Positions 3,029 through 59,754 of a stretch of 64,000 nucleotides of DNA are shown piece after piece. How positions within the stretch are numbered: the first letter of the stretch is position 1; the number at the start of each line of letters is the position of its first letter. Made by a program: the position numbers and the translations under genes. The DNA lies in assembly GCF_030684315.1 (NCBI RefSeq), contig NC_081360.1:10892599-10956598 (forward strand), written 5' to 3'. Origin of the DNA: Stegostoma tigrinum. Its lineage: Eukaryota. A model generated the notes under the pieces. It made no database searches and was not told the DNA's origin. It saw only the letters and a program-made list of their open reading frames with translations.

Positions 3029-3097
3029 CCTCTGAAGTTATGACAATGTGTACAATGAGTGTTGTAAAAGTGTTTGGTTCAGGGATGTGTATTTTAT

Positions 3098-4595: not shown

Positions 4596-4930
4596 TAAAT
4601 GTTGACTTTGCCATATAACTTTTCTGTTGTTCCATAATGGAGCATTTATACTTCCTGCTAAAATCTGAAGTTGCTCAATGTTTCAAACTTGAAATGCACA
4701 CAGTTTTGTTTTCTCTTAGGAATTACATTGAGGTAGTTGTCTGAAACACACTGTGTAATTTGCATATTTCTGCCTTTTGTTATCATTGAAAGGGTGAGAA
4801 TGTATTTGAAGGTTTTGAAATCAGTGTCCTCATATGAATTATTCCTCAAAGTGGAGTTTTTTTTCCATATCTACTTCCAAGTCTTCTTTTCCAAACCAAA
4901 ACCTCACAATCCAAAAGTTATCTTTACTCT

Positions 4931-6900
4931 GAGAGATAGTAAGAACTGCCGATGCTGGAGTCAGAGTCTGGAGCTGCAAGAACTCAGCAGACCAGGCAGC
5001 ATCAGAGGAGCAGGAACGTTGATGTTTCAAGTCAGGACCCTTCTTCAGAAATGTGGAAGGGGGAAGGGAGCTCTGAAATAAATAGAGAGGAGGGTGCGAG
5101 TGGGAAGGTAGGTGGGATGGGGATAGGGATAGGTGAGGGAAGGTAGGCAGTAGTAAGCATTGGTCAGTGAGGTAGGAGGGGCGGAGAAGTGGGAGAGAAG
5201 ATGGATACGGTGTATCAGGTCAAGGAGTCGGGATGAGAGGGAGGGTTGGTCATGGGAAGGACTGGGGTGGGGAGATTTTGAAAGTGGTAAAGTCCACATT
5301 GAGACCATTGGGTTGTAGGCTCCCAAGGTGGAATCAGAGGTGCTGCACCTCCAGTTCCTGGGTGGCAACATTGTGACACTGGAGGAGGCCCAGGATGGAC
5401 GTGTCACCCAGGGAGTGGGAGGGGGAGTTGAAATGGTTTGCGACTGGAAGGTGTTGTCGTTTGTCACAATCAGAGTGCAGGTGCTTTACAAAGCAGTCTT
5501 CGAGCCTCCGCTTGGTCTCACCAATGTAGAGAAGGCCACTCAGGAGCAGCGGCTGTAGTAGACCACCATTGGTGGGTGTGCAGGTGAACTTTTATCTGAT
5601 GTGGAAGGTTTTTATGGTTCCTTGGATGGAAGTGAGGGGCTAGGTGTAGAAGCATATATAGCACTTCCTGTGGTTGCAGGGAAAGGTGCCAGAGGTGGCA
5701 GGGCTAGTGGGAACTGTGGATCAGACGAGGGAGTCAGGGAGCGAGTGGTCCTTACTGAAGGCAGATAGGGGTGGGGAGGGAAATATATCCTTGGTTGTGG
5801 GGTCAAGACTGCAGGTGGCAGAAGTGGCAGAGAATGATACATTGAATCCAGAGGTTATTGGGGTGATATGTGAGAACAAGGGAGATTCGGTCTTCATTTT
5901 TGTTGTCAGGAGGGGACACAAGGACAGAGGTGTGGGAAATGCAAGAAATGCGGTCAAAAGCATTTCCGACCACTGAATGGGGGGAAGTTGCGGTCCTTGA
6001 AATAAGAGGACATCTGGAACGTTCCGGACTGGAACGCCCCATCTTTGGAGCGGACGCAGCAGAGGTGGAGGAATTGGGAGTAGGGGATCGCATTGTTGCG
6101 GGAAGATGGGTGCAAAGAAGTGTAGTCTAGCTCGCCATGGGAATCCGTGGGCTTGAAATAGATATCGGCTTCAAGGTGGTCACCAGAGATGGAGACAGAG
6201 AGGTCCAGGAAGGGGAGAGAGAGCTTTTAGAGATGGTCTGGGTGAATTCGAGGTTGGGGTAAAAGGTGTTAGTAAAGTTGACAAACTGTTCAAGCCCCTT
6301 ATGGGAGCACCAACCAGCACTGATACGGTCATCGATGTAGCGGAGGAAGAGGTGGGGATAGTGCCAGTGTAGCAACAGAAGAAGGACTGTTCCACATATC
6401 CTACAAAGAAGCAGGCATAGCTTAGCCCCATGCAGGTCCCCATTGCCACCCCCTTAGTCTGTAAGAAGTGGGAGTAGTTAAATGAGAAGTTGTTAAGGGT
6501 AAGGACAAGTTTGGTTAGGCGGATGAGAGTGTTCGTGGAGGGAGACTGGTTAGGCCTGAGGGAGAGAAAGAAATGGAGGGCTTTTAGGCCATCTACATGT
6601 TAGGAGGAAGGTATAGAGGAGACGTCAGAGGGAGGTTCTTCACCCAGAGAGTTGTGAGCGCATGGAATAGTTTACCAGTGGTAGTCGTGGAAGCAGAATC
6701 ATTAGTAACATTTAAGCGACTGCTGGACATGCACATGGACAGCAGTGAATTGAGGGGAATGTAGGTTAGGTTATTTTATTTTTGGATTAGGATTAATCCA
6801 CGGCACAACATGGTGGGCCGAAGGGCCTGTACTGTGCTGTACTTTTCTATGTTCTATGTTCTACCTGGGGAATACAAGTGTGCAGGGATTGGATGTCCAT
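4931..6900 (-). mobile_element. Penelope-like retroelement (Neptune-type RT + GIY-YIG), decayed, interrupted by a CR1 3' end
   Basis: Minus-strand MAMGTCMGLSYACFFVGYVEQ, LFLRYIDD, LVLTYHPNN and Cys-rich/GIY-YIG remnants. Terminal hammerhead at 5021-5048. The RT resumes after the CR1 insert as MDIQSLHTCIP at 6864-6900. Confidence 0.9.
6597..6862 (+). mobile_element. 5'-truncated CR1 3' end with (TTCTATG)n tail inserted in the Penelope element
   Basis: RGRFFTQRVV motif and a gggccgaagggcctgtactgtgctgt tail with ttctatgttctatgttcta. Short tctac duplication at 6592-6596 and 6860-6864. Confidence 0.85.
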
Positions 6901-7815: not shown

Positions 7816-8131
7816 GGGAGCGGCACGGTGGCTCAGTGGTTAGCATTGCAGCCTCATAGTGCCAGGGACCCAGGTTTGATTCCAGCCTCGGGCGACTGTC
7901 TGTGTGGAGTTTGCACATTCTCCCTATATCTGCATGGGTTTCCACTGGGTGCTTCGGTTTCCTCCCACAGTCCAAAGATGTGCAGGTTAGGTGGATTGGC
8001 CATGCTAAATTGCCCGTAGTGTTCAGGTGTTTGTGGGTTATAGGGGGATGGGTCTGGGTGGGATGCATCAAGGGGGGGTGTGGACTTGTTGGGCCGAAGG
8101 GTCTGTTTCCACACTGTAGGGAATCTAATCT
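7816..8131 (+). mobile_element. HE1-like elasmobranch tRNA-derived SINE
   Basis: A box TGGCTCAGTGG, B box GGTTTGATTCC, V-domain-like core (tgtggagtttgcacattctccc...ggtttcctcccacagtccaaagatgtg), CR1-like 3' end and tctaa tail. aaaatg occurs on both flanks. Confidence 0.9.
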
Positions 8132-12431: not shown

Positions 12432-12566
12432 AAAAACCGAAAGAACTGCAGATGCTGTGAAACAGGAACAAAAACAAAGTTGCTGGAAAAACTCAGCAAG
12501 TCTGGCAGCATCTGTGAAGGATAAAACAGAGTTAGCGTTTTGGGTCCAGTGATCCTTGTTCAGAAC
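12432..12566 (-). mobile_element. Penelope-type terminal fragment, second family, with degenerate hammerhead
   Basis: Matches an arm of the 17411-17659 fold-back (gaactgcagatgctg...acaaagttgctggaaaaactcagc...gggtccagtgatcc..cagaac). Similar orphan termini occur at ~405-480, 9248-9372, 11739-11830, 15780-15868 and 47170-47250. Confidence 0.7.
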
Positions 12567-13949
12567 GTGAGGAATGTGATGTTTGATAGTTTCCCTTAAC
12601 TGGCTGAAACCTAGACAGCACAAGTATCAGACTATGCTTCAGTAGATGATGAGAAAATCATTATATGGGAATAACCTACCAGGCCTCATCCCCACCTGTC
12701 CCAGATGCATCAATTCATGGAACCATTGGTGTGAGTATCCATCAGACTGTTCTGTTATGACCCAAACTTATTTTCACACTGCAGATGTTATCCATATAGT
12801 AATAGGGAATAACAGCAGCAGATTTATTCAAGTACTTTATTTTAACAAAAAAGAAAGAGAATAAGATATAAATATAGAAGGAAACCAAAACTAAATTGAG
12901 GAGAGGCATTTATTCTGTTCAATAATAGAAGAGGAAATAACAGTATAGAAAACAACAGGACTATAAACAGATAAATATTCAGGACCTGTTAGTGTCATGC
13001 AAAGTGATGAAAATAAATGGGTGAAGGAATTATAGAAACATTATTTGCAATCTGTCAAAACTCAAATGCATTCCCTTATTTACAAATAGGATGAGAGGGA
13101 AGCCACGTGGTCAGTTTTGAAATCTGTTGTTAGGGATATAGTGACTGTTCTGAAACTATGACCAAGACTTCAGTCGTCTATCCTAATATCCTGTATGGCT
13201 CTGGATAGGGATTCTATGAAATATAGAGCAGACCACAGAGAACTAGTGTAACTTTACGAATTGTTATTTGACTAACCTATTTGAGTTATGTGAGGAAATC
13301 ATTAATGAGGCTGATGAAGGAGAGACCATGGACCTTCCCAGAAAGCATCAATTAGGTTCCACGGAAAGGGCTGAATTTAATATTTGTTTTGTTAAGTGTG
13401 AATTGCATTGAATGTTTTGAAGGGATTCTTGCTATGAAGCCCAATGACATTCTTATCAAACATGGCTTATTGATACCCCACCCCTATGGTGTCCCTCATG
13501 TCTGAATTTATCCCATCTTAACACACATTGTTCCAAGAAACAACCCATAACTTATCAGAGATTCATCATAAAATTTCTTGTGCCCATGCCATCTTTGAAA
13601 GGTTGCTCTGCAACTGGTCAAGCATTGGCAATTCAGAGTTGCCCCTCACCAACAGTGTAGTAGCATAGCAGCCATAAAACCACACTGTTGTAGGCACATG
13701 ACTGCATGGCTGACATGTCCTCGCACATCAAATCCCATTCTCCCATCATAATCGCTGTTTAACAGCCACACCACACAGAATACCTATCATTAACTGCATT
13801 CCGTCTCAACACCTTCTCTTGACCACCACTACTCTGTCCACAGTATCTACTAGACACTTGCATCTTGTCATTATCCAGTAGGGAAATATCATAGATAAGC
13901 AGTTGGGCAAGCCAAAACATGAGCTTTCATTGACAACAGTTAAATGGAT

Positions 13950-15225
13950 CAACAAAGGAAGATGGTCGTGGTTGTTGGAGGTCGGTCATCTCAGATCCAG
14001 GATTACTCTGCAGGAGTTCCTCAGGGTGGTCTCCTAAGCCCAATCATTTCCAATTGCTTCATCAATGACCTTCCATCCATCCATCAAAAGGTCAGAAGTG
14101 GAGATGTTTGCCAATGATTGCACAATGTTCAACACCATTCATGAGTCCTCAGGTACTGAAGCAGTCCGTGTCCAAATGCAACAAGATCGGGACAATTTCC
14201 ATGCTAGGGTTGACAGGTGGCAAGTAACATTCATACCATACAAATATCAGGCAATGACCATCACCAATAAGAGACAATCTAGTCACTGCCCCGTGATATT
14301 CAATGGTCCTACCATCACTGAATCCTCCGCTGTCAACAGCCTAGGGGTTACCATTGACCAGAAATTCAACTGAACTCACCACATAAGCACAGTGGCTGTA
14401 ATAACAGGTTCGATGCTTGGAATACTGTGGTGAGTCATGCACCTCCTGACTCCCCAAAGCCTGTTCAGCATCTACAAAGGCATAAGTAGGGAGTGTTGGA
14501 GATTGTAAGGACTGCAGATGCTAGAAGCTACCGTCCATAAATGTGGAGCTGGAAAAGCACAGCAGATCACATAGCATCCAACGAGCAGGAAAGTCAACAT
14601 TTTGGGCTGACAAAGGATTTTGGCCCAAAACATTGACTTTGTTGCTCCTCAGATGCTGCCCATCAGGCTGTGCTTTTCCATCTGCACATTTTATTGACAC
14701 ATGGCAAGGATGTGATGAAGTACTCCCCAGTTGTCTGGATGAGTGCAGCTCCAACTACACTTAAGAAGTTTGACACCATGCAGGACAAAGCAGCCTGCTT
14801 GATTAGCACAACATCCAAAGCATCCACTCCCTCTATCACCACTGCTCAAAGGAGCAGTCTGTATTCTCTGCAAGATGGACTGCAGAAATTCACCAAAGAT
14901 CGTCAGATAGCAACTTTCAAACTCACGACCACTTCCATTTAGAAGGACAAGGGCAGCAGGTACATGGGAACACCACAACCTTGAATTTCCCCTCCAAGCC
15001 ACTCACCATCCTAGCTTAGAAATATATCGCACCCCCCCCCCTTTCACTGGTGTTGTGTCAAAATCCTAGAATTCCCTCCCTAATGGCATCATGGATCAAA
15101 CCACAGCAACTAAACTGCAAAGTTTCAAGAAGGCACTTTAACCACCACCTTCTGAAGGCCAACTGGGGACGGGCATTAAGTACTGGCCACCAGTGACAAC
15201 CACGTCATACAAATGAATAAATAAA
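13950..15225 (+). mobile_element. CR1/L2-group LINE 3' half (RT), interrupted by a fold-back element at ~14500-14698
   Basis: GVPQG.LLSPI..CFIND, EMFANDCTMF, W..RWQVTF, LGVTIDQKFN and MKYSPVVWMSA, followed by an (ATGAATAA)-type tail. Confidence 0.8.
14500..14698. mobile_element. Fold-back Penelope-terminus mini-element (old, diverged)
   Basis: Left arm aaatgtggagctggaaaagcacagc...gtcaacattttgggc; right arm gcccaaaacattgac...gctgtgcttttccatctgcacattt is its reverse complement. Confidence 0.7.
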
Positions 15226-17203: not shown

Positions 17204-17389
17204 TGGCAACATGCTAGCTACCACCAGTGGAGACAAAACAGTGAAGATTTGGGATTTTACAAAAGTTGAATGTGCATCCACATTTACTGGCCATCTTCAT
17301 GCTGTCTGGGGCTGTTCGTGGCACAGCTGTGGTGATTTTGTAGCATCTTGTTCCATGGATAACACTATTAAGATCTGGGATATTAACAG
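17204..17389 (+). CDS. SPAG16: Internal coding exon of sperm-associated antigen 16 (WD40 central-apparatus protein, PF20 orthologue)
   Basis: Polypyrimidine tract and acceptor cttttttctgcag| (AG 17202-17203), donor AG|gtaagg (GT 17390-17391). 186 bp, phase 2 at both ends. Encodes GNMLATTSGDKTVKIWD...TFTGHLHAVWGCSWHSCGDFVASCSMDNTIKIWDIN, i.e. the end of one WD40 repeat plus a complete GH...WD repeat. The WHSCG(D/N)FVAS motif is one I recognise from SPAG16. The ATG at 17184 in the ORF track is intronic. Confidence 0.88.
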
Positions 17390-17410
17390 GTAAGGAATTT
17401 GTTTTTGTGT

Positions 17411-17659
17411 GTACAAAAACAAAGTTGCTGGAGAAGCTCAGCAGATCTGGCAGCATCTGTGAAGGAGAAAACAGAGTTAATGTTTTGGGTCCGGTGACCC
17501 GCCCTCAGAAGTGGGGACTCAGAACCAGTTCTGAGGAATGGTCACCCGACCCGAAACCTTAACTCTCTTTTCTCCTTCACAGATGCTGCCAGACCTGCTG
17601 AGCTTTTCCAGCAACTTTGTTTTTGTTGCTGATTTACAGCATCTGCAGTTCTTTTGGTT
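17411..17659. mobile_element. Fold-back Penelope-terminus mini-element with hammerhead motifs on both strands
   Basis: Arms of about 95 bp (17413-17510 and 17529-17626) are reverse complements. Flanking 13-bp direct repeat tttgtttttgtgt (17398-17410) / tttgcttttgtgt (17660-17672). Confidence 0.85.
17527..17564 (+). ncRNA. Minimal type-I hammerhead ribozyme motif (one core mismatch)
   Basis: agtt-CTGAGGA-a-tGGTC accc GACCc-GAAA-c-CTT-aact. Helix I agtt/aact, helix II GGTC/GACC. The family consensus would be GAAACGTT. Confidence 0.6.
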
Positions 17660-18379
17660 TTTGCTTTTGTGTAGTTCACATAGGATGTTACTTTCCACTG
17701 ACAAATATAAGTAATCAGTCAATGATTTTGCAGGATAGCTCTTAGCATCAGTAACTCAGCTTACACTTGATCTTGGTGTCTGTTCTTATCTCGATCTTGC
17801 AAAAGTATGCATTAAACGTCACTGTCTCAGTGTGAAAAACAGCAAAGAAAATTGTGGCAAGGCATTGTTTTTGAAGGCTTCAAATGAATATTTGTGGAGG
17901 ACCGAAATTTTGTCGTTGTGGTTCATATGCATCTCTCTTGTGATAACTGACTTGCAAGTACTTCAGATTATTCATCATGGAATCATAGGGTAGAATTTTT
18001 CGGAAAATGACATTTCCCACCTCATCACCAGAGATTCATCAAGGAACACACCTATGCCAAAACTAGCTGTCCCACAACCATTTAATGCCCTAAAGTGGCA
18101 TTAAATGCCCTACTTGGCTGGACATGGGATTTCTGCCCCTCACTCAGCAATTGTCCTCTCTCGGAGAACAGGGGTCAATCAGATTGGCCATCAGCTTTGT
18201 AGTCTCAACAGGGCCAATAGTAGTATTGGCCAGATTCAGATGTAGAAGACAGGACCCCCATAAGTCAAGCCAGTTGTAATCTCTCCCATTTTAGTCTTTC
18301 TTTTTGAAGCTTCCCTAATTATGTGCAGGAATGTTACTCCATGGGTCCACAGTGAACACTACCTGACATTTAGAATCTA

Positions 18380-18607
18380 GAGATAACAAGGTGTAAAGCT
18401 AGATGAACACAGCAGGCCAAGCAGCATCAGAGGAGCAGGAAGGCTGACATTTCGGGCCTAGACCCTTCCTCAGAAACTTCTGAAGTAGGGTCTAGGCCTG
18501 GAACGTCAGCCTTCTTGCTCCTCTGATGCTGCTTAGCCTACTGTGTTCATCCAGCTGTACGCTGTGTTATCTCAGATTCTCCAGCATTTGTAGTTCCTAC
18601 TATCTCT
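18380..18607. mobile_element. Fold-back Penelope-terminus mini-element
   Basis: gagataac...agacccttcctcagaa (18380-18475) is the reverse complement of ttctgaagtagggtct...gttatctc (18478-18573), followed by a ~35-nt tail. Hammerhead cores in both arms carry mutations. Confidence 0.85.
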
Positions 18608-18925
18608 CAGTCACTGAATTTATTTCTGCAGTCATCTCTTAACTGTAGCAGTCCTCTTTTAAAATACAGACAGTGAAGTTAAAAGTTCAGTATATTTATG
18701 AGTAGGTTTTGATTCATTGTCATGCTACGTTGGACACTTCTGTTGAATCTTTTTTCAACCTTCACTTCTCAAAGAAGTGTAACCTCAGTATCTGTAATCT
18801 ATCCATATAGATGAAGTCTCCAATATCTTCACATCCTTCCTAAAGTATTGTGCTCAACATTGAACACAATACTGCAGCTGAGGTCAAACCAATCTTGTAA
18901 TTCCTGGGTGTGCTGTTTTCTACAT

Positions 18926-20873: not shown

Positions 20874-21703
20874 GTTAAAATTGTGCACCTTCCCCTGCAA
20901 CCGCAGGAAGTGCTACACTTGCTCCCACACCTCCTCCCTCACCCACATCCCAGGCCCCAAGATGTCTTTCCATATTAAGCAGATGTTCACCTGCACATCT
21001 GCCAATGTGGTATACTGTGCCCACTGTACCCGATGTGGCTTCCTTTACAGTGGGGAAACCAAGCGGAGGCTTGGGGACCGCGTTGCAGAACACCTCCGCT
21101 CGGTTCGCAATGAACAACTGCACCTCCCAGTCGCAAACCATTTTAACTCTCCCTCCCATTCCACAGACGACATGTCCATCATGGGCCTCCTGCAGTGCCA
21201 CAATGAAGCCATCTGAGTTTGCAGGAACAGCAACTCATATTCCGCTTGGGAACCCTGCAGCCCAATGGTATCAATGTGGACTTCACAAGCTTCAAAATCT
21301 CCCCTTCCCTAACTCCATCCCAAAACCAGCCCAGCTCGTCCCCTCCCCCCACTGCATCCCAAAACCAGCCCAGCTTGTCTCCGCCTCCCTAACCTGTTCT
21401 TCCTCTCACCTATCCCTTCCTCCCACCTCAAGCCACACCTCCATTTCCTACCTACTAACCTCATCCCACCTCCTTGACCTGTCCATCTTCCCTGGACTGA
21501 CCTATCCCCTCCCCACCTATACTGTCCTCTCCACCTATCTTCTTTTCTCTCCATCTTCGGTCCGCCTCCCCCTCTCTCCCTATTTATCTAGAACCCCCTC
21601 CCCATCCCCTCTCTGATGAAGGGTCTAGGACCGAAAAGTCAGCTTTTGTGCTCCTGAGATGCTGCTTGGCCTACTGTGTTCATCCAGCTTCACACTTTGT
21701 TAT
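20874..21703 (+). mobile_element. 5'-truncated Penelope-like element (GIY-YIG and terminus) with 15-bp TSD
   Basis: FPCNRRKCYTC...NVVYCAHCTRCGFLYSGETKRRLGDRVAEH; hammerhead motif at 21613-21640. TSD ctataaactagtgag (20859-20873) / ctataaaccagtgag (21704-21718). Confidence 0.92.
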
Positions 21704-22538
21704 CTATAAACCAGTGAGCTTGACATCAGTGGTGGGCAAGTTGTTGGAGGAATCTTGAGGAACAGGATTTACATATATTTGGAAAGGCTTGGATGGATTA
21801 GGGATAGTCAACATGGCTTTTTGCATGGGAAATCATGTCTCACTAAATTGATTAAGTTTTTTGAAGAAGTAATGAAGAGGATTGATGAGGGCTGAGTGGT
21901 GGATGTGATCTACATGGACTTCAGTAAGGCATTCAATGAGGCTGTTTGTGGTAGACTGTAATTAGCAAGGATAAATAACCTGAAATACAGGCAGAACCAG
22001 CCATCTGGATATAGAGCTGGCTTGAAGGTAGAAGACAGAGGGTGGTGGTGGAGGGTTCCTTTCAGACTGGAGGTCTGTGATCCAGTGATGTGCCACAAGG
22101 ATCGGCCCTGGATCCAGTGCTTTTTGTCATTTATACAAATGACTTGGATGTGAAAATAGGAGGTATGGTTGGTAAGTTAGCAGATGACACCAAAATTGGT
22201 GGTGTAGTTGACAGCAAAGAAGATTACCTCAGAGTTTGGTGGGACCTTGATCAGATGGGCCAATTGGCCAAGGAGTTGCAGATGGAGTTTAAACTGGATA
22301 CATGTGGGATGCTGCATTTTGGAAAGGCAAATCAGTGCAGGACTTATGTACTTAGTGGTAAGGTCCTGGGGAGTATTGCTGAGCAAAGAGGCCATAGAGT
22401 GTAGTTTCATAGTTCCTTGAATGTGAAGTCCCAAGTAGATGGAATAGTGAGGAAGGCTTTGGTATGCTTGTCTTTATTGGGTCAGTGTGCATTGAGTATC
22501 GGAGTTGGGAGGTTATGTGGCGGCTGTACAGGATATTG

Positions 22539-40687: not shown

Positions 40688-41592
40688 AGACAAGGGTGGG
40701 GTGGGAAAAATTTTCCTTGTCTGCCTTCCGAAGAGACCACTCTGTCCGCGACTCCCCTGTCTGCTCCATACTCCCCTCCAACCCCACCACACCTGGCACT
40801 TTCCCCTGCAACCACAGGAAGTGCTACACCTGCCCCCACACCTCCTCCCTCAACCCCATCCCAGACCCCAAGATGACTTTCCACATCAAGCAGATGTTCA
40901 CCTGCACATCTGCCAATGTGGTATACTGCATCCACTGTACACGGTGTGGCCACCTCTACATTGGGGAAACCAAGCGGAGGCTTGGGGACCACTTTGCAGA
41001 ACACCTACGCTCAGTTCTCAGTAAACAACTGCACTGCCCAGTCGGGAACCATTTCAACTCCCCCTTCCATTCCTTAGACTACATGTCCATCCTGGGCCTC
41101 TTGCAGTGCCATAATGATGCCACCCGTAGGTTGCAGGAACAGCAACTCATATTCCGCTTGGGAACCCTGCAGCCCAATGTGTCAATGTGGATTTCACAAG
41201 CTTCAAAATCTCTCCTCCCCCCACTGCATCCCAAAACCAGCCCAGCTCGTCCCCGCCTGCCTAACCTGTTCTTCCTCTCACCTATTCCCTCCTCCCACTT
41301 CAAGCCGCACCTCCATTTCCTACCTACTAACCTCATCCCGTCCCCTTGACCTGCCCATCCTCCCCAGACTGACCTATCCCCTCCCTACCTCCCCACCGAT
41401 ATTCTCCTCTCCACCTATCTTCTCCTCTATCTATCTTCAGTCCGCCTACCCCTCTCTCCCTACTTATTTCAGAATCCTCTCCCCATCCCCCTTTTCTGAT
41501 GAAGGGTCTAGGCCTGAAACATCAGCTTTTGTGCTCCTGAGATGCTGCTTGGCCTGCTGTGTTCATCCAGCTCCACACTTGGTTATCTTGGA
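40688..41592 (+). mobile_element. 5'-truncated Penelope-like element (GIY-YIG and terminus) with a short inverted 5' segment
   Basis: ORF 40696-41349 has CNHRKCYTC...NVVYCIHCTRCGHLYIGETKRRLGDHFAEH. Hammerhead motif at 41496-41523. Confidence 0.92.
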
Positions 41593-41599
41593 TTGTCCA

Positions 41600-42390
41600 G
41601 TAATAATGGTCCATTATTAAGGATGAGTTGCAGAGTACTTGCAAGTACATGGTAAAATAGGGTTGAGTCAGCATGGCTTTGTCAAGGGGTGCTCATGCCT
41701 AACAAATCTGTTAGAATTCTTGAGGAGGTAATGAGCAAGTTAGATAAAGAAAGCCAATGGATGTGACCTATTTGGATTTTCAGAAGGCCTTTGACAAGGT
41801 GCCTCACAGGAGTAAATATGACAAGAGACCATTGTTTTTGGGACTGGGTACTCCATGGATAGAAGATTGGCAGAGAGTGGGGATAAAGGGGTCTTTTTCA
41901 GGACAGAAGCTGGTGACTAATGGAGTTCCATGGGAGTCAGTATTGGCACCACAGTTATTCACGTTACATATTTATCTGGATGAAGGAACTGAAAGCATTA
42001 TTGATAAGTTTATAGATGGCACAGATAGGTGGAAAGACAGGTAATGTTAAGGAAATGGGAAGGCTGCAGAAGGACTTGGACAGGCTAGAAGAGTAGGCAA
42101 ATAGTGGTAGATAAAATACAATGTAGGAAAGTGTGAAGTTATACACTTGGTATGAAGAATAAAGACATTGACTATTTTCTAAAAGGGGATAGGCTCCGGA
42201 AATCTGCAGTACAAAGGGAATTTGGAGTCCTGGTTTAGGAATCTCTTATGGTTAACTTAAAAGTCCTGTTCACAGTTATGAAGGCAAATGCAATGTTAGC
42301 AATCGTTTCAAGAGGGCTAAAATGTAAGAGCAAGGATGTACTACCGAGGCTGTATAATGCTCTGATCAAACCATATTTGGAATACTGTGA
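41600..42390 (+). mobile_element. CR1 RT fragment
   Basis: QHGFVKGCSCLTNLLEF, DVTYLDFQKAFDKVPH and LIKPYLEYC. Confidence 0.8.
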
Positions 42391-42537
42391 TGAAAAGAAT
42401 ACTTATTATTTCACATTAGAATCCATCATTAAATAAATATCTAAAAAGTATGTAACACATTAGTCCCATGACTTGTTTGAAAACAGAAGTGTTCGAGGCC
42501 AGACATTATCTCACAAACTAGTGTGTACTGTCCATCT

Positions 42538-42726
42538 AAGTGTGAAGCTGGATGAACAGAGCAGGCCAAGCAGCATCTCAGGAGCACAAAAGCTGACGTT
42601 TCGGGAAGGGTCTAGGCCCAAAACACCAACTTTTGTGCTCCTGAGATGCTGCTTGGCCTGCTGTGTTCATCCAGCTTCACACTTTGTTATCTTGGATTCT
42701 CCAGCATCTGCAGTTCCCATTATCTC
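42538..42726. mobile_element. Fold-back Penelope-terminus mini-element with 14-bp TSD
   Basis: aagtgtgaagctggatg...acgtttcggg pairs with cccaaaac...ccagcttcacactt. TSD tgtactgtccatct (42524-42537) / tgtactatccatct (42727-42740). Confidence 0.88.
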
Positions 42727-43725
42727 TGTACTATCCATCTGTACCCTTATCTTCAAATAAAGAACCCACATTATCGTTTCAAAGGTCCTTATACACAAAC
42801 ATACCAATGATACCTAATAGCAGAAAAATGTAACATGGTGTCTATTAGTGCTAGCATGGTTTTGAAGATTTCATTGCAAAATACACAGATGTCAATCATT
42901 CATGTATGAAAGAAAGAAGACTTGATGTGAAAGTGCAACAACTATCAAAAGACATTGCGTGTAATGATTCTGCAGCTTTTTTGGAATTCTACACACCATA
43001 CTTATGATCTGGGATTGCATCTCTCTCCAGACAGCAATCATTGAGCCTTGCTAAGATTTTTAGTTAAAGTCTGGCTGCTTTAAAGGCTAAACAGGAACAT
43101 AACAACAGGCTACAGACGCTCTTACTATATGTAGTATTTCAGAAAATATCTCTCATTGCTGACTATCCTTCCAGGAGGTCAGGTAAAGAAAAGGTACTAT
43201 CTGGGATAGAATCTATCTGGGAAGAAGAATCTATGCATTAAAAGCTCCTAACAGCTAAAACAAACTTATTTTTTTTCCTCAGTTTGCTTTGACTTTAGAA
43301 CTATAGACTGTACTGCCTGCATTGCTGATTAAGTTTGCATTAGATATTGTGCCAGTGATGGAATAATTTATGAATAGCCTGTAGACTGTGTCTACCCATT
43401 TTTAAGGCTTTAAACTTGCAACTACTTCATTATAATTATTCTATGGTGTAACATTTGGGTTGGACCAAGAAGTTTTTTTGATATGCTTTTATTGGGGTGG
43501 AGGCTAACAGGAGTTTGATTATGTTGCAGACTTGTTCAACTGCAATGAAGTCATAATCGCACTCCTTGTCACTGCATCTGCTTATGAATTGGTCAGTGGT
43601 CTCTGTTGGATTTCACATCCAAACTGTATTCTGAAGTTGAGATTCATTTATAGTTCATCTTCAAGTCTTGAGAATCTTTCACCTGGACTTTTAAGATGAT
43701 TGAACAAAACGTGAAGGCTCTCACT

Positions 43726-48043: not shown

Positions 48044-48137
48044 CTCTCTGATGAAGGGTCTAGGCCCGAAACGTCAGCTTTTGTGCTCCTGAGATGCTGC
48101 TTGGCCTGTGTGTTCATCCAGCTTCACACTTTATTAA
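48044..48137 (+). mobile_element. Penelope terminal piece with intact hammerhead core (48048-48075)
   Basis: CTGATGA-a-GGGTCtaGGCCC-GAAA-C-GTC followed by the family terminus. Confidence 0.8.
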
Positions 48138-50220
48138 CTATATTTTTGCATTGTTCCTGGCAATGGCTCTTGAGGGGAATGGTTGGTGGTATTCTTGATC
48201 ACTTGATCTTCCCTGGACCTCTGTGGAGTTCCCTTTAGCATGGGTTTTGCACTTGAGGATTGATACCTCCTAGGGCAACTGAATAGCATTAAGTAAGTCA
48301 GAACTTCATTTCCATTTTTGATGGGTGTTCTGGGTGCTATAAGAAACCCACCTTTCAGCTATGAGAGGCCAAAGTGATAGGCCACTCCAAAAGCATATCC
48401 AGAGTCTGTGTAAATATTGGCTTTCTTCCCCTTAGCTAGCTTACATGCCCCCATCGGAGTTCTTAATTCAGCCTGCTATACTGATGTACCAGATGGGATG
48501 CTACCCTGGGCAAGTGTTTCATGTGGTCTTGTTACTGCCAACACAGCCGTACAGATCCAATTTTTTGCAAAGGAGGGCCCATCCATAAAAAGGATCAGGT
48601 CTGGATTCTGCAGGATTCCTCGGATGCCCAGGTGGCTTCATCAAGCTGCAGCAATATTTCAATTTAACATGCTCCCCGTGCTCCCCCTCCTCCCCACTTT
48701 CATCTAACGATACGGGCAACAGTGGCGGAAAAATATGACTAAGATGGATTAGGTGAATATTCAGGGCCTCTAAGACGTCCAGCAGATCCACCAGGCAGCA
48801 GTAACATGAGAGATGCAATACATGGAGAGCATGGCATGGACAGTGTGAGGGCACTTGACAACCAACTTTTGGTCAAGGACAATAGGAGCAGTTACCCTAA
48901 CACCACGACAAGTACATTCCGTAGCCCATAAACAGCTGCCCCAATCCAGAGACACAGGATCCAGGCAAGCAGAGTCGTATCCGTTGAGATGCTGCCTGTT
49001 ATCGTACTCTTGTGTTGGAACAGTTTTCATGCCATCCTGCTCATGGACATGGAGAGTAAAGGGGCACAAAACCAGGCCAGAACATAGAACAGATTTTACA
49101 GCCTGGAACTAGAGCACTGTTCATGGGAGAAAATAACAGAGTCCCAAGAGTTTTTAGAACTCTTAAGGAGATCAGAGAAAGGTTGCACAAGTTGAGAGTA
49201 ACTGTCAGTCCGAGATCTATTAAAATTACAAAGGCCCAAAAAGGATCTTGGGTCTCAGATGGTGGTGGGCTCCTTCATGGAGCGAATGACAGCAGTTCTG
49301 TCCTGAGTAATTTCACATTTGCCAGAGAAGATTTTCTGCCCCAGATAGATGACCTTGCGCTGCACAAGTCAGGCTTTGTGACCTCTAGAATTTATGTGGT
49401 CAAGGAGGGGGCAGAGATCCTGTTTCTGTTGTTCCACTGTGGGAGAGGACATCAGGATGTCATCAACATATTGGATAACGGTAGAGTCCTTAGGACAGAT
49501 CCCCTGCAGATGTTGCTGTACAGCCACATGAATAATAGTTAGACTGCTGCAAAAACCCTGGGGCAGGCTTGTCCAGATGTATTGCTGGCGCTGAATAGTG
49601 AAGGCAAACCAAGGCTGTACCTCAAGGGTGACGGGAACCAACCAAAAACATTTGCCTTATCGATAATAGAGAAAAATTTGTGGTTCGGCGAGAGGTCTTT
49701 AAGAATGGTGGAGGCGTCAGCCACAAGTGGTGGTTTCTGATTTATACATTGATTAGCTTTACAATAGTTGACAGTCAATTGCCAGGAGCCATCAGGTTTC
49801 TTACCAGGCCAAACAGGACTATTAGATGAACTGTGGGTTTTGACAAGGTACCCTGCTGTTCCACGCGTTGGATGACAGGAAGAATGCCAATGATTGAGGC
49901 CAGGCTGATGGGGTATTGCTTAATGCATGGAAGTGCAACCCCCATAAAGGAACAGGAGGCATCTACAAAAGGCCGCAGCCATTCTTAGATTTAACCCCGA
50001 TGGCGTGGTTGTGCCATTCTTCAAGGGACAGTTGTCAGATGGACCAGGTTGTGTGGCCATCGTCAAAATGGATAGATAAATTTATCTGTGTAAGGACATC
50101 CATTGCTAAGAAGGCCTGTTGGACCAGGCCAATGCACAAGGGAGTGACAGTTTCATTAGGGCCCATCTGACCAGGGCAGGTATGGCCTTAGACTTGCGGA
50201 GTCTGTCCCTGCCAGGGCTA

Positions 50221-50465
50221 ACAGTCACTCTGATCCCTCAATCCCAGTTCAAATGAGGTGCTTCAAATGCAAAATGGAGATATGTAAATTTGGCCCATGT
50301 GACAGTCACTCTGATCCCTAAATCCCAGTTCAAATGAGGTGCTTCAAATGCAAAATGGAGATATGTAAATTTGGCCCATGTGACAGTCACTCTGATCCCT
50401 AAATCCCAGTTCAAATGAGGTGCTTCAAATGCAAAATGGAGATATGTAAATTTGGCCCATGTGAC
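50221..50465. repeat. Tandem repeat, 3 x 81 bp
   Basis: Units start at 50221, 50302 and 50383. The only difference seen is ccctca versus ccctaa. Confidence 0.97.
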
Positions 50466-52207
50466 GAGGAAACAATCAATTCCTCTACCTCCTGCTCCCA
50501 CTCATACATAGTAGCCATCACTCCGTTCTTCTAAGGCTGCATATAGAGGGGCCAAGAGGGAGAGGGAGGGTGGCTCCGGTCTTTTGTGAGATCCATCTGC
50601 TGTTTCAGCTGATCACTGGAGCAGTCTTTGAAGTCGTTTCTGCAACGTCATGGAATTCCAACCACAGGGGTTTTGGGAGGGGCACCCCCTTTGGAAACCT
50701 TCCATTCTGTCTGCAATTCATTCCCCAGTGGCCACCATGGCTGCATTTAAAACACCATCAGGGGCATTTATCAGGATTGTTCTCAGGTATAGGGGAGGGT
50801 GCTGCTGCTCGCATAACACACATATTTGGATTCCATATATCTTTCCAAGTGACTGGCTTCATTAATCAAGAAGGCTAAATCATGTCCCAACTCATACTTA
50901 CAGTCTCTATGTTGTTGATTAAGTATTTTGGAAAGTTTAAGCTTCAAGCCAGCTACAAAGGCTGCTTTGATGGAAGCGTATGCTTGCTCCTCTCCTTCCT
51001 CTGGAGTCTCTTTGTGGGCCAAGCCCAAATGTTCAATCCAGGTATCAATAAATCTTTGAGCAAAATTTCTCACATCCTCTGAGCCTTTTTGTTGGCAAGA
51101 TGATATTTTTGTCCAGTCAGTTTTAGGTGGACAATATTCATGTAGCCAATCACAGAGGGCTTCCCATCCCTTATCCAAATCTTGGTCATTTTGTCCCAGC
51201 CTGTCCTTCACCTTTCTAAGCAGTCTTGCTCCAACAGTGGAGCCTTCCATGGCTGTAAGAATTTGGATCCCATCAAATGGATGGAGACGGTAAATGTTTT
51301 TGAATTTCTCCAATTCTGACCATGCCTTGTGACCTTTTTTTGGTGATGGCAGTTCTTTCGAACATTGTTTGCCAATTTGGGATTGGGAGGTTCATGGAGG
51401 CCCAGTACCTAAAATCATAAGGGGTTTTGCTTGTCAGTTTGTCATCTACCAGTTTCCATGTAACCTTTAGTCTGCTGATATCGGACCGTTCGCATCTGGC
51501 TGAGGGTTCCTGTCCTCCTTCCTTTTCAAAGTTGACTTTGAAACAGGACCTATTGGGGCGTTGTGTCCACTTGGGGAATGTTTATAGAGTGGAGGTCTGC
51601 AAATAAGGCTAGGATATGGGCCTTCACCTGATTTAAGGTGTTCTATTTCCTTTAATGCTTTTCTCAGTTCTTCGTTCATTTTTAATTCACTACAGATATC
51701 CTGGCTTCCTGTCTTTATCTTAGTTGTTACATGGCACACAGGGACCAAAGGATTTGTTTTTTTATCCCTGAGTCGGGTTGTTTCTCCCCAGACTTGTTTT
51801 ATATCGTCCAGAGACCATTATCTCATGGAGGCTCCATATTTCTTTGAGATTTCCTTTAAGGTTGAAGAGAGGGCGAATTGTTCAATTTTTTTTTTGTTTC
51901 TGTAAAAGTTCCCTTTCCAATGTATCCAGCAGTGCTTGCCCACCTTTTACTGTGTTGGTAGTTTCTTGGCCATTATTACCACTCTCTTATGTCTCTCAGC
52001 TGTGAAATATTATAGATAATTTTTATTAAATTACTGACAGGGACATCTCCCTTTAAGTAGAGTTCACTGGGAATAGATTCAGGTTTTATCTCTGATCATA
52101 TTGGATGGTATTTTCCAAAGAAAAAGGGTCTGGCCGTCACCCGCAGTCTTTTAGAAAAGAGAAGTTCTTACCTCACTGTTGAGTGAAGCAATGACACTGG
52201 AAAGTGG

Positions 52208-54145: not shown

Positions 54146-54819
54146 CTCTTCGAAAGACAGAATCATACAAGATGGAAGAGGCCCTTTGGCCCACCAAGTC
54201 TGTATTGCCAAAAATATATTACTACTCACACAATTCTCACTTTTCTGCACTTGGCCCTTAGCATTGAATGCTATGACATTTCAGATGCTCATGCAAGTAC
54301 TTTTAAAAAGTTGTGAGGTTTCATATCACAACCACCCTCCCAGGCAGTAAGTGCATTCCAGGCCTCCACCAACCCCTGGGTGAAAATGTTTTTCCTTAAA
54401 TCCCCTCAAAACCACCTGCCTTTCACCTTATTATTGAACAGTAATCTCATATGCAAAAAGAACTCAAAGGCAGGTAGTAAAGACAACCTATGACAACTGT
54501 AATGCTGTGTGTTTTATTGAAAGCTAAGAACTATGGTGAAAACAGGTGTCACAGCATTGCTTGTTTCACATAGTGAAAGCTGGTGTGACTGAACAGTTAC
54601 TTCAAGTTTTGCTCAAATGCTGTTGATCAGTATGAGGTAAGATAACATTGTGACTTTTACGTGTGACAAAAATGACTGTGAGGGATTCTAACATTTGATT
54701 TTAAATAAATAAGGTGACCTTGCATTGTAGTTCATAGGGAGGACAGAAACTGCAAAGCCTGATCACTGCGTCAGGAGCGTATTATTGGCCCAGATTTTGA
54801 AGTGGGAATAAACAGAAAG

Positions 54820-56745
54820 CCTACCTACGTCCGTGACACCACCCACGCCCTCCACCTCCTCCAGAACTTCCAATTCCCTGGCCCCCAACACCTCATTTTC
54901 ACCATGGACCTCCAGTCCCTACACACCTGTATTCCGCATGCAGATGGCCTCAAGGCCCTCCGCTTCTTCCTGTCCCGCAGGCCCAACCAGTCCCCGTCCA
55001 CCGACACCCTCATCCACCTAGCCGAACTCGTCCTCACCCTCAACAACTTCTCTTTCGATTCCTCCCACTTCCTACAAAGGGGGTGGCCATGGGCACCCGC
55101 ATGGGCCCAAGCTATGCCTGCCTCTTTGTAGGTTATGTGGAACAGTCCCTCTTTCGCACCTACACAGGCCCCAAACCCCACCTCTTCCTCCGTTACATTG
55201 ATGACTGTATCGGCGCCGCCTCTTGCTCTCCAGAGGAGCTCGAACAGTTCATCCACTTCACCAACACCTTCCACCCCAACCTCCAGTTCACCTGGGCCAT
55301 CTCCAGCACATCCCTCACCTTCCTGGACCCCTCAGTCTCCATCTCAGGCAACCAGCTTGTAACTGATGTCCATTTCAAGCCCACCGACTCCCACAGCTAC
55401 CTAGAATACACCTCCTCCCACCCACCCTCCTGCAAAAATTCCATCCCCTATTCCCAATTCCTCTGCCTCCGCCGCATCTGCTCCCAGGGTGAGGCATTCC
55501 ACTCCCGCACATCCCAGATGTCCAAGTTCTTCAAGAACTGCAACTTTCCCCCCACAGTGGTCGAGAACGCCCTTGGCCGCGTCTCCCGCATTTTCCGCTA
55601 CACATGCCTCACACCCCGCCCCCGCCACAACCGCCCAAAGAGGATCCCCCTCATTCTCACACACCACCCCACCAACCTCCGGATACAACGCATCATCCTC
55701 TGACACTTCCGCCATCTACAATCCGACCCCACCACCCAAGACATTTTTCCATCCCCACCCCTGTCTGCTTTCCGGAGAGACCACTCTCTCCGTGACTCCC
55801 TTGTTCGCTCCACACTGCCCTCCAACCCCACCACACCCGGCACCTTCCCCTGCAACCGCAGGAAGTGCTACACTTGCCCCCTCACCTCCTCCCTCACCCC
55901 TATCCCAGGCCCCAAGATGACTTTCCATATTAAGCAGAGGTTCACCTGCACATCTGCCAATGTGGTATACTGTATCCATTGTACCCGGTGTGGCTTCCTC
56001 TACATTTGGGAAACCAAGCGGAGGATTGCGGACCGCTTTGCAGAACACCTCCGCTCGGTTCGCAATAAACAACTGCACTTCCCAGTCGCGAACCATTTCA
56101 ACTCCCCCTCCCATTCTTTAGATGACATGTCCATCATGGGCCTCCTGCAGTGCCACAACGATGCCACCCAAAGATTGCAGGAACAGCAACTCATATTCCG
56201 CTTGGGAACCCTGCAGCCCAATGGTATCAATGTGGACTTCACCAGCTTCAAAATCTCCCCTTCCCCCACCGCATCCCAAAGCCAGCCCAGTTCGTCCCCT
56301 CCCGCCACTGCACCACACAACCAGCCCAGCGCTTCCACTCCCCCCACTGCATCCCAAAACCAGCTCAGCCTGTCTCTGCCTCCCTAACCTGTTCTTCCTC
56401 TCACCCATCCCTTACTCCCACCCCAAGCCGCACCTCCATTTCCTACCTACTAACCTCATCCCACCTCCTTGACCTGTCCGTCTTCCCTGGACTGACCTAT
56501 CCCCTCCCTACCTCCCCACCTATACCCTACTCTCCACCTATCTTCTTTTCTCTCCATCTTCGGTCCGCCTCCCCCTCTCTCCCTATTTATTCCAGAACCC
56601 TCACCCCATCCCCCTCTCTGATGAAGGGTCTAGGCCCGAAACGTCAGCTTTTGTGCTCATGAGATGCTGCTTGGCCTGCTGTGTTCATCCAGCTTCACAC
56701 TTTATTATCTTGGATTCTCCAGCATCTGCAGTTCCCATTATCACT
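54820..56745 (+). mobile_element. Longest Penelope-like (Neptune-type) copy: RT + GIY-YIG + hammerhead terminus; inactivated
   Basis: YVRDTT, FTMDLQSLHTCIPH, MAMGTRMGPSYACLF, LRYIDD, FLD.SV, KPTDSHSYL, IPYSQFL, CNRRKCYTC and NVVYCIHCTRCGFLYI(W)ET. Frameshift at ~55078 and stop at 55701-55703. Confidence 0.95.
56618..56645 (+). ncRNA. Minimal hammerhead ribozyme core
   Basis: CTGATGA-a-GGGTCtaGGCCC-GAAA-C-GTC: complete catalytic core, helix II, and a 1-2 bp palindromic helix III. Confidence 0.75.
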
Positions 56746-57831
56746 TTCCCTCATCTTACTTCTTAATCTAGCAGCAACATTGAGAGTCCATACAGGTATT
56801 GTTGAACACATCCTATAATCAATTAAAATTCATTGAATTGATAAGAGCGGTCCCTTTTAATTGTAATATCAATGTTAAAAACTTCCTGAAAAGGTCTTGT
56901 TAATGACATTTAACTGGATTTTGATAGCATACTGTCATTACTATTACTGATGAACTGTTCTGATTTTGGAAAATCAATTTTATGTTCATATAATGTTACA
57001 TTTTCCATTGTAATGTTAAAATATCTACATTTCTTAACTAAATATTTGATTATAGTAATTGAAGAATATATAAATCCTTGAAGTTTATTGGTGATTTTTC
57101 AGCCTGTAATGTATTCCGATCATTTATTTCGTTTCATGTCAAATTTATATGAAGTGAAGGATAATCGGTGCATTTTACTTCCCAGTTTGTTCTCCATGAG
57201 TTTTCTAGAGTGTGATTAGCTCCGTTCCCTGCTTGAAAAACCTTGTACCTCTGAGAGATGCTAATGATATAATTGTCGTGCAGCAGATTCCAACTAATGT
57301 CAGAAATTGGCACTTGTAAGCATTGTTAAATCTTTGTGTGGAACTTTCTTCACGTTAAATAGCAAGTGCCATTGTGTCACCTCTGACCCAAAAATGCAGG
57401 CCACTGTGTTGACCACACCAGATAATACCAGTCAATATAATCCATGGAGGTATATCACAAACTTTTCAGAGATATAGGTGATACTTAGCAACAGGGTCAT
57501 GTTTATTTATATTTCAATTACCTGGATTTTATGATCAAACACAACCAAATTTACCCAGTATTGGTCAACCAACTGGGAGTAGAAGACACAAACTCAGTGG
57601 ATCTTCCAGTCTTTGTCTGTGCTATGTGTTTTATGATATGAATATTATGAAATTATAATTATCAAGAAGACCAACAGAGTAAGGCTCACAGCTCTAGAAA
57701 AGAGAAGGCTGTTGGTCTACTGAATAATGTTAGTTAGAATCATGAGAAAATTTGCTAGGATAGTCCCTGAAAAATTAATAGGAAATTCACAGAAACTTAT
57801 TTTTTGCAGAAGTAGCTAGAATGTTAGATTA

Positions 57832-58501
57832 GAGATAATGGGAACTGCAGATGCTGGAGATTCCAAGATAATAAAATGTGAGGCTGGATGAACACAGCAG
57901 GCCAAGCAGCATCTCAGGAGCACAAAAGCTGACGTTTCGGGCCTAGACCCTTCATCAGAGAGGGGGATGGGGGGAGGGAACTGGAATAAATAGGGAGAGA
58001 GGGGGAGGCGGACCGAAGATGGAGAGTAAAGAAGATAGGTGGAGAAGGTGTGGGTGGGGAGGTAGGGAGGGGATAGGTCAGTCCAGGGAAGACGGACAGG
58101 TCAAGGAGGTGGGATGAGGTTAGTAGGTTGCTGGGGGTGCGGCTTGGGGTGGGAGGAAGGGATGGGTGAGAGGAAGAACCGGTTAGGGAGGCAGAGACAG
58201 GTTGGACTGGTTTTGGGATGCAGTGGGGGGGGGGGTGGGGAAGAGCTGGGCTGGTTGTGTGGTGCAGTGGGGGGAGGGGATGAACTGGGCTGGTTTAGGG
58301 ATGCAGTGGGGGAAGGGGAGATTTTGAAACTGGTGAAGTCCACATTGATACCATATGGCTGCAGGGTTCCCAGGCGGAATATGAGTTGCTGTTCCTGCAA
58401 CCTTCGGGTGGCATCATTGTGGCAGTGCAGGAGGCCCATGATGGACATGTCATCAAGAGAATGGGAGGGGGAGTGGAAATGGTTTGCGACTGGGAGGTGC
58501 A
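57832..58501 (-). mobile_element. 5'-truncated Penelope-like element with 9-bp TSD
   Basis: Minus-strand GIY-YIG C-terminus (HCHNDATRRLQEQQLIFRLGTLQP.GIN) and intact hammerhead core at 57931-57958. gttagatta at 57823-57831 and 58502-58510. Confidence 0.92.
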
Positions 58502-58756
58502 GTTAGATTAATTGTTAGATTAATTACCTTAGGGATTGGTTGAGGTGTAGCATAAAAATACATTCAAGGGGGAAGCCAGACAGGTATATAAGGAACAAAG
58601 AAAAGGAAGGGTATACCTATCGGGATTCATTAACTGAGGTTGGAGGAGACTTGTAAAGGACAAACACCAACAAAAGGCCTATTGCTAAGTGGTAAAATGT
58701 CGTATTACAAAGCTGAACTTTCTAAAGACTGTTATAAAATGCCCTGTAGGTTTTAT

Positions 58757-58966
58757 GAGTGATAATGGGAACTGCAGATGCTGGAGAATCCAAGATAACA
58801 AAGTGTGAAGCTGGATGAACACAGCAGGGCAAGCAGCATCTCAGGAGCACAAAAGCTGACGTTTCGGGCCTAGACCCTTCATCAGAGTCTAGGCCCAAAA
58901 CATCAGCTTTTGTGCTCCTGAGATGCTGCTTGGCCTGCTGTGTTCATCCAGCTTCACACTTTGTTA
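58757..58966. mobile_element. Fold-back Penelope-terminus mini-element with 15-bp TSD
   Basis: A full terminus on the minus strand (intact hammerhead 58858-58885) is joined to a partial plus-strand copy. TSD ccctgtaggttttat (58742-58756) / ccctgtagtttttat (58967-58981). Confidence 0.92.
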
Positions 58967-59754
58967 CCCTGTAGTTTTTATACTGTTTTGATATTCAACT
59001 AATGGTGATGCTTAACATGTTTGGCCACTGAGTTTTAAGATCTTTTAAGACAACCAGGATGAATGCAGATCTCTAATAGGCTTGATAATGTCTGTCAGAC
59101 TTTTGGAACCCACATATTTGCTGACCCCCTTGCCTGCAGGATAGCAAATTGCACTGCCAGCCTAATCCCAAAAACACCGCCTTTGTTATCTTGACCGATT
59201 CAGTTAACAGTCAGAATAAGCCGATAAGCTTTTCAGACATGTTTCTTTCTTCTGAAATAACCAGTGAAAAGCAAAACCAATACATTATTTTTACTGGATA
59301 AACCTTGACATATAATACAACGCGTGTCATTTTTAGTGTAAAGATGAGAGATGTATCACCATAGACTGCAGACTATTCATAGCATAAATCAATTATATTT
59401 ATTAAAGATTTTTATCTAGTCCTTGTATATCACATGCTGCAATTACATTGTTACAGAAGTAATCTTGACAATGAAAAGAAATAAAATGCCAATCATTTCC
59501 TGATAGGAACCACAGAATTACACACACTTACAGATGCACTCTGTTTTCAGAAACTACTAATCAGCTTCACTTATCTGTATTTGCCATGTTTTGACCACAT
59601 ACCCCACAGCACTGATCTTCAAAAATAGGGGAGATTAGTAGCCAGATATTAGAACCATGCTCCAAACAACCTATGGGCAGTATGGCTTCAGGGAAGCTGA
59701 AAATTAAAACATGGAATTTGTACAGAATGCCTCTGAAAAATTAGGCTTTCTCAT

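Follow-up and report, generated by a model that had tools for sequence, protein, structure and literature searches.

Five short inverted repeats, each built from two copies of the terminus of a Penelope-like element (PLE), were identified in a 64,000-nucleotide stretch of repeat-rich vertebrate DNA from Stegostoma tigrinum (hereafter the window). Each of these fold-backs is probably an independent, one-off insertion of an endonuclease-bearing (EN+) PLE, generated by priming from both ends of the target site and corresponding to a minimal, body-less form of the published inverted-pLTR structure. An initial annotation of the sequence had put forward two readings. The first, a non-autonomous hairpin family mobilised in trans, is unsupported in the window, where none of the ten possible pairs of fold-backs has a common junction and four sequence groups are represented. 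The second, a recurrent by-product of insertion, is supported in substance but not in its details, as none of the ten arms stops at the ribozyme-cleaved end.

The terminus that forms the fold-backs also ends longer copies whose frames match reverse transcriptase (RT) and GIY-YIG proteins, and the fold-back termini are therefore those of an EN+ PLE. Broken frames at 54.8-56.4 kb and in four further places match proteins that carry RT and GIY-YIG annotations; among the named matches, Stegostoma tigrinum comes closest (93%), followed by Rhincodon typus (83%) and Chiloscyllium punctatum (64-69%). A direct Pfam scan of four broken PLE frames returned 0 families. Judged from the protein matches, the source would most likely be a carpet shark and the parent an EN+ PLE. 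A Cys-rich linker separates the RT from the endonuclease in the window frames and their homologues; a zinc-finger-like motif at this position is a trait of the Neptune and Nematis clades (PMC8557442), and this feature points to one of these two clades. When the PLE N-terminus was sought in the terminus (tblastn, 120 homologues against four termini), the one real match was a C-terminal read-through in the Stegostoma protein.

A profile search recovered 23 PLE termini in the window, ten in fold-back pairs and 13 non-inverted, the latter comprising five at the ends of long copies and eight that stand alone. The decayed terminus at 47169 was omitted from the 22-row alignment, which contains 12 non-inverted copies. 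Positions in the terminus are numbered with C3 of the hammerhead core as +1, cleavage falling after +28; TSD denotes a target-site duplication. The non-inverted copies are:

54808..56746, plus strand: longest parent PLE copy, 5'-truncated, with broken RT, Cys-rich linker, GIY-YIG-type endonuclease and C-rich tract, followed by a tailed terminus
57831..58504, minus strand: parent PLE copy, 5'-truncated, tailed, with a 9-bp exact TSD (57823-57831/58502-58510)
20885..21705, plus strand: parent PLE copy, 5'-truncated, tailless, within a LINE, with a 15-bp TSD (20859-20873/21704-21718)
40715..41600, plus strand: parent PLE copy, 5'-truncated, with an intermediate outer end (+105)
4930..6599, minus strand: older parent PLE copy, 5'-truncated, tailed
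12432..12580, minus strand: single group-B terminus (12429), tailed, with a 10-bp exact TSD (12422-12431/12581-12590) and a 9-nt inverted stub 5' of the arm
48044..48139, plus strand: single tailless terminus, beginning at -4
1509, 3096, 9248, 11739, 15780 and 47169 (decayed): other single termini

The longest copy is devoid of an inverted 5' copy. Around the copy at 20885, a LINE paralogue at 30519 aligns across the duplicated stretch. About 11 nt of unassigned sequence, possibly filler DNA, lie between the candidate TSD and the 5' end of the PLE copy at 20874-20884 and 3085-3095, and the 57831 copy has two tandem repeats of its TSD sequence at its 5' end (58500-58525). LINE reverse-transcriptase fragments were noticed at 30462-31538 (+), 14038-14942, 20248-20873 and 22081-22404, with a Pfam RVT_1 match for 30822-31535; they host the PLE insertion at 20885 and apparently a second one, the fold-back at 14500.

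The five inverted pairs of PLE termini claimed in the initial annotation are all present in the sequence, measure 189-249 bp and are oriented head-to-head in every case; a profile search of the window returned no fold-back beyond them. Random placement of 22 termini did not give even three close head-to-head pairs in any of 20,000 trials, which rules out chance adjacency. The element annotated at 18380 actually begins at 18372, and the description of the elements as two inverted copies only does not apply to 17411, which includes a 10-nt insert (17518-17527). Arm ends were placed manually at the limits of BLAST matches, with an uncertainty of a few nt in old copies. The layout of the elements is:

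58742..58756: left TSD of fold-back 58757, 15 bp, one mismatch to 58967-58981
58757..58887, minus strand: tailed arm, PLE terminus from -2 to +129
58757..58795, minus strand: 39-nt tail, present on the tailed arm only
58858..58885, minus strand: minimal hammerhead motif with intact core (CUGAUGA, stem II, GAAA, cleavage triplet)
58887..58966, plus strand: tailless arm, +11 to +90, starting within stem II and without CUGAUGA, with a 1-nt overlap at the junction
58967..58981: right TSD, 15 bp
42524..42537: left TSD of fold-back 42538, 14 bp, partner 42727-42740, one mismatch
42538..42726: fold-back from the sequence group to which 58757 belongs, with no complete hammerhead core in either arm
42538-42605, minus strand: its tailless arm, +18 to +85
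42605-42726, plus strand: its tailed arm, +6 to +127
42727..42740: right TSD, 14 bp
17398..17410: left TSD of fold-back 17411, 13 bp, T-rich, partner 17660-17672, one mismatch
17411..17659: fold-back of group B
17411-17517, minus strand: its tailless arm, -9 to +92
17518-17527: inverted stub
17528-17659, plus strand: its tailed arm, -3 to +125
17660..17672: right TSD, 13 bp
18372..18609: older fold-back whose arms are 81% alike; the tailless one spans 18372-18476 (minus strand, -3 to +102), the tailed one 18478-18609 (plus strand, from -2)
14499..14697: oldest fold-back (14500), arms 67% alike; tailed arm 14499-14608 (minus strand, from +16), tailless arm 14607-14697 (plus strand, from +1)

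The tailed arm of 58757 is 95-97% identical to the termini of the long copies 56745 and 57831. Close to fold-back 17411, a coding exon (17202-17389, plus strand) specifies a WD40 protein with a full-length match to SPAG16/PF20, many other WD40 proteins matching too. The left TSD of 17411 begins 8 nt past the GT splice donor of this exon, which would put a 100-bp hairpin downstream of the splice site in the pre-mRNA.

The three long direct flanks reported in the annotation, of 13, 14 and 15 bp with one mismatch each, are as stated, and each was significant when compared with 600 random flank pairs (p about 0.002). A TSD was also sought at 14500 and 18372 and none was found, giving a total of three of the five fold-backs. 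Ordinary, non-inverted copies likewise have TSD-like flanks of 9-15 bp (57831, 20885 and 12429): the exact 9-bp flank of 57831 reached p about 0.002, and those of 20885 (15 bp) and 12429 (10 bp exact) were found with a wider search margin and without a null. Since ordinary copies are flanked in the same way, a TSD indicates that both arms came in during one event, and not that the elements form a hairpin family. Examination by eye of the TSD ends revealed no consistent cut-site motif. No paralogous empty site was present in the window for any of the five fold-backs, a LINE paralogue being available only for the long copy 20885.

The outer ends of the arms fall into two classes. In tailed arms they lie at +125 to +129; in tailless arms they lie at +85 to +92, apart from one at +102. 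Every fold-back combines one tailed and one tailless arm (length difference 28-42 nt), which bears out the claim that only one arm keeps the tail; such a mixture in 5/5 elements has p about 0.03 under independent arm draws. Both classes occur in plain copies, since the 12 aligned non-inverted copies comprise 7 tailed, 4 tailless (+93/+94) and 1 intermediate, in keeping with the optional 30-40 nt tail at one end of EN+ PLEs.

The inner ends cluster as well. For the tailed and the tailless arm, respectively, they lie at -2 and +11 in 58757, +6 and +18 in 42538, -2 and -3 in 18372, +16 and +1 in 14500, and -3 and -9 in 17411. Of the 22 termini in the alignment, 15 have their start between -15 and +18, 5 extend into the body, 2 begin at +44 and +47, and none begins at +29. 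Five single termini begin at -15 to +4, in the same zone as the fold-back inner ends. As +29 is the end of the cleavage product, the junction does not correspond to a ribozyme-cleaved end; all ten arms extend 11-37 nt past the cleavage site, and a junction at the ribozyme cut is ruled out. The two tailed single termini beginning downstream of the cleavage site, 3096 (+47) and 11822 (+44), could mark a second possible stop point.

The assignment of a minimal hammerhead relies on the core motif and stem II read in the sequence, together with the description by Cervera and De la Pena (2014); by these features the parent termini would carry a minimal hammerhead in the pLTR, as EN+ PLEs do. Rfam reported no hammerhead in the window at the gathering threshold, nor in 56400-59200 when E values up to 10 were admitted. 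An intact core was found by pattern in three of the ten arms (17411, plus strand; 18372, minus strand; 58757, minus strand), and 42538 has no CUGAUGA on either arm, this half of the core having never been present. The label "hammerhead-bearing" given to the elements was thus overstated: it suits three of the five, on one arm each, and one element never had an intact core. A rough folding estimate put the cost of opening the core at 23-28 kcal/mol in three fold-backs versus 4-5 in three plain termini. In 58757 the value is 23.3 kcal/mol and the motif is predicted to be buried in the hairpin; such predicted burial argues against self-cleavage and a retrozyme-like cycle. The tail is predicted to lie outside the long hairpin in all five folds. 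An Rfam mir-191 match on fold-back 58757 (31 bits for a cut-off of 54) was rejected, as it reflects the long hairpin only.

The annotation had noted that junctions differ between copies, and all five are indeed distinct. Three of them overlap by only 1 nt, none exactly uses the stem II hairpin, the one of 18372 is a near-perfect palindrome and, in 17411, the 10-nt insert and the beginning of the tailed arm together form a palindrome of 18 bp. At least two sequence families had been proposed; there are several, and the actual number is four. In the sole same-group pair (42538 and 58757) both breakpoints differ. Copies of an amplifying family should have one structure and one junction, which was found in 0/10 pairs. 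In 58757 and 42538 the two arms of each element are 93-96% alike; these arms are 92-99% identical to the non-inverted copies 56745, 57831, 21705, 41600, 48044 and 3096, and 90-93% to 1509; each fold-back is about as close to ordinary copies as its own arms are to each other.

A tree of the 22 termini, in which 1/19 branches was starred, is based on sequences too short for subfamily resolution. In this tree, the 17411 arms cluster with the single copy 12429 at 100/100. The tailless arm of 58757 and the tailed arm of 42538 have two G>A changes in common and form a weak grouping (80/75); both sites are CpG and are mutated in other copies too. With regard to an A-to-I signature, 0 A>G and 1 T>C were counted among the 9 changes of four young arms, a comparison of low power, and 2 A>G and 3 T>C among the 25 changes of seven plain copies. 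An open frame runs through the 58757 junction, and two protein searches (E up to 0.01, 44 and 9 candidates) retrieved no other copies, which is weak evidence. With five elements only a dominant family is excluded: one representing 30% of fold-backs would be missed with a probability of 0.53, and a share of at least 70% is unlikely (p at most 0.03).

From the anatomy of the elements, their two outer-end classes, their clustered inner ends and their unique junctions, we infer a two-ended target-primed reverse transcription, in which two priming events would take place at one site in vivo. The PLE protein would make a staggered target cut, 13-15 nt apart, and both free 3' ends would prime cDNA synthesis on uncleaved PLE RNA, one cDNA starting at an outer site (about +127, which would yield the tail) and the other at an inner site (about +90). 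After 70-130 nt, close to the hammerhead's 5' edge (-9 to +18), both cDNAs would come to a stop, possibly because they reach the RNA 5' end (transcript start) or a pause site. Joining of the two cDNA ends would then rely on 0-1 nt of overlap or on a short palindrome, followed by fill-in, and would leave a dead-on-arrival hairpin that has either no ribozyme or a buried one.

Several of these steps have been described in vitro for a lizard PLE, the Poseidon element of Anolis (PAc; Frangieh et al. 2024, PMC11167929): each of the two target strands is cut and extended, RT begins at two sites that correspond to the ends of the tail, the template's 5' end sets product length, and hammerhead mutants insert normally, cleavage being dispensable. 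The PAc enzyme belongs to the Poseidon clade, whereas the element studied here has a Neptune/Nematis-like linker. Moreover, joined inverted products are not described and inverted pLTRs not discussed in the available text of that report, and start-site use was not seen to differ between the strands, so that it gives no account of why one arm is always tailed. An inverted pLTR, an optional tail and an 8-10 bp TSD make up the typical PLE structure (PMC3846280), which is found across clades (PMC8557442). For new PLE insertions in Chlamydomonas, the median length reported is 128 bp (PMC9977147), and the Penelope element of D. virilis has an internal promoter (PMC2377424). The body-less form, which accounts for 5 of the 17-18 PLE insertions in the window, is the limit expected from these published facts. 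An inverted 5' partner was found in 0/5 long copies versus 5/12 short insertions (Fisher p = 0.24), meaning that two-ended priming is unseen here for long inserts.

The tailless arm could also arise by snap-back, as in the second reading of the annotation: a single cDNA would fold near the hammerhead and copy itself, and the copy would end before reaching the tail and then be linked to the other end of the target. The palindromes at the junctions of 18372 and 17411 agree with this, junction palindromes having been interpreted as self-priming (PMC3846280), and in 58757 and 42538 the tailed arm extends further upstream, as snap-back requires. In 14500 and 17411, however, the tailless arm surpasses the tailed arm on the upstream side, by 15 and 6 nt respectively, and this surplus in two of the five elements cannot come from simple snap-back of a tailed cDNA. 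Nor do the 1-nt overlaps at three junctions, the failure of all five to use exactly the ready-made stem II hairpin, or the absence of junctions at the cleavage site fit well with it, and the tailless ends match the tailless non-inverted copies in position (+85 to +94), a sign of fresh priming. We therefore hold snap-back to be an unlikely general origin. It does gain from the short inverted stubs located directly 5' of two group-B termini, at 12567-12580 (9 nt) and 17518-17527 (8 nt), both of which begin at -3 (12429, p = 0.002; 17411, p = 0.006; two of the 14 ends tested, uncorrected, extra reference arms having been given to 12429 and 17411 only). Two-ended priming does not explain these stubs, because priming at the inner start site cannot make them; they need either brief snap-back synthesis or copying across an older inverted junction. 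They are the best hint of an occasional re-copying of fold-back RNA, and as cDNAs copied through an existing inverted junction they could also speak for hairpin families, in which transcripts of some fold-backs would be inserted anew by the PLE protein acting in trans, with the unpaired tail as RT start. The presence of TSDs on 3/5 elements, the position of the tail outside the predicted hairpins and the weak grouping of two arms from different elements are compatible with such families, as are the reports that pLTRs suffice for trans-mobilisation in a rotifer (PMC3846280) and that non-autonomous PLE derivatives exist (PMC8557442; bioRxiv 10.64898/2026.07.22.740005). The two stub junctions are not alike, though, no junction is common to two fold-backs, the share of any family is bounded as above, the TSDs are not peculiar to fold-backs and the editing signature is missing (with low power), which leaves this origin improbable.

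Two further explanations carry less weight. The fold-backs might be secondary products of longer inverted-pLTR insertions which lost their body, the outer repeats remaining between the original TSDs. The long form is well documented (PMC3846280, PMC2377424, PMC8557442), microhomology-mediated deletion of Penelope copies has been reported (PMC3846280), and such deletions would yield unique junctions and one tail. But the five long copies of the window lack an inverted 5' pLTR, the ten breakpoints all lie within 27 nt with no body remnant, and single termini truncate in the same zone, making this very improbable. Assembly artefacts, or neighbours brought together by chance, can practically be dismissed: tandem and inverted PLE structures do trouble assemblies (PMC8557442), but the arms differ by 4-33% with ordinary substitution patterns, and the TSDs bracket both arms.

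Among known systems, we regard the fold-backs as members of the PLE inverted insertions, working in the same way, and as neither retrozymes nor MITEs nor, in the window, an amplifying family. EN+ PLE insertions such as Pen2a/Pen2 of Adineta vaga and Penelope of Drosophila virilis show a head-to-head, inverted 5'-truncated copy with the whole unit within a TSD (Craig et al. 2021, Fig. 2); here the arrangement is head-to-head in 5/5 and lies within a TSD in 3/5. Inverted-pLTR insertions also have a one-sided tail of 30-40 nt, a shorter inverted copy and junction palindromes (PMC3846280, PMC8557442, PMC2377424). They differ from our elements in that no ORF or body lies between the repeats here, and the TSDs measure 13-15 bp compared with 8-10 bp in rotifer PLEs (PMC3846280). 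Dual minimal hammerheads located nearby on opposite strands were described in Schistosoma, where the authors took them for truncated PLEs (Cervera and De la Pena 2014, PMC4209133). These motifs are about 100-700 bp apart, whereas ours abut or overlap, and arms, tails and TSDs are not analysed in the available part of that study.

Metazoan non-LTR retrozymes are similarly short, non-coding and PLE-pLTR-related, with a hammerhead motif and TSDs longer than 4 bp, but they consist of head-to-tail tandem units with working ribozymes and circular RNA (PMC7229834; bioRxiv 10.64898/2026.07.22.740005). Our units are head-to-head, and instead of each having a complete type I hammerhead, only 3/10 arms are intact by pattern, the core being otherwise missing, or predicted to be buried. 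MITEs have in common with the fold-backs a short, non-coding, inverted-repeat shape and a TSD (PMC8969392). In contrast to MITEs, the repeats here derive from a retroelement, are unequal and do not reach both ends as DNA-transposon TIRs would, a 28-42 nt unpaired tail lying between one arm and the TSD; there is no family consensus, and the TSDs are long and variable.

In L1 twin priming, which produces 5'-inverted L1 copies, both target strands prime, the inversion lies within one TSD and microhomology is seen at the join. Twin-priming cDNAs cover different parts of the RNA, whereas both cDNAs cover the same 70-100 nt here, which would call for a pair of templates, for one RNA with two pLTRs, or for strand displacement. 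Within the literature searched, outside subscription papers, Repbase, Dfam and supplements, no description of pLTR-only fold-backs or of their mobilisation was found.

The origin of inverted pLTRs and one-sided tails in PLEs has been described as undefined (PMC8557442). As stubs of the parent element, the fold-backs would be the simplest natural products of PLE insertion, and they make its mechanism countable genome-wide: there should always be one tailed and one tailless arm, and the inner ends should lie at the hammerhead's 5' edge instead of the cut site. If these predictions hold, the two start sites found in vitro (PMC11167929) would be tied to a genomic structure. A new mobile family would matter more, and the evidence here points away from it. 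The density of five in 64 kb (Poisson range 1.6-11.7) would, if typical, imply very many hairpins per shark genome, and repeat pipelines could mislabel them as MITEs or microRNA precursors. A broader generalisation, which we judge improbable as a whole, would be that in carpet sharks body-less fold-backs are a major PLE product (about 30% in the window; 25-180 per Mb if typical) obeying a fixed strand rule for the outer and inner sites, with both cDNAs stopping at the hammerhead 5' edge, a group-B subset re-inserted as a ribozyme-independent hairpin retroelement, and intronic copies giving abundant 70-100 bp dsRNA.

Other repeats were noticed in the window. On the minus strand, 49500-51800 contains Gag-like and RT-like broken frames which by eye suggest an LTR element or endogenous retrovirus, two frames giving no Pfam match; three 81-bp tandem copies, 99% alike, lie in this LTR-element-like region (50221-50465). 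A SINE-like repeat of about 300 bp with a tRNA-like head occurs at 7816, 22895, 34347, 43730 (minus strand), 44400 and 61724, the copies at 43.7 and 44.4 kb forming an inverted pair.
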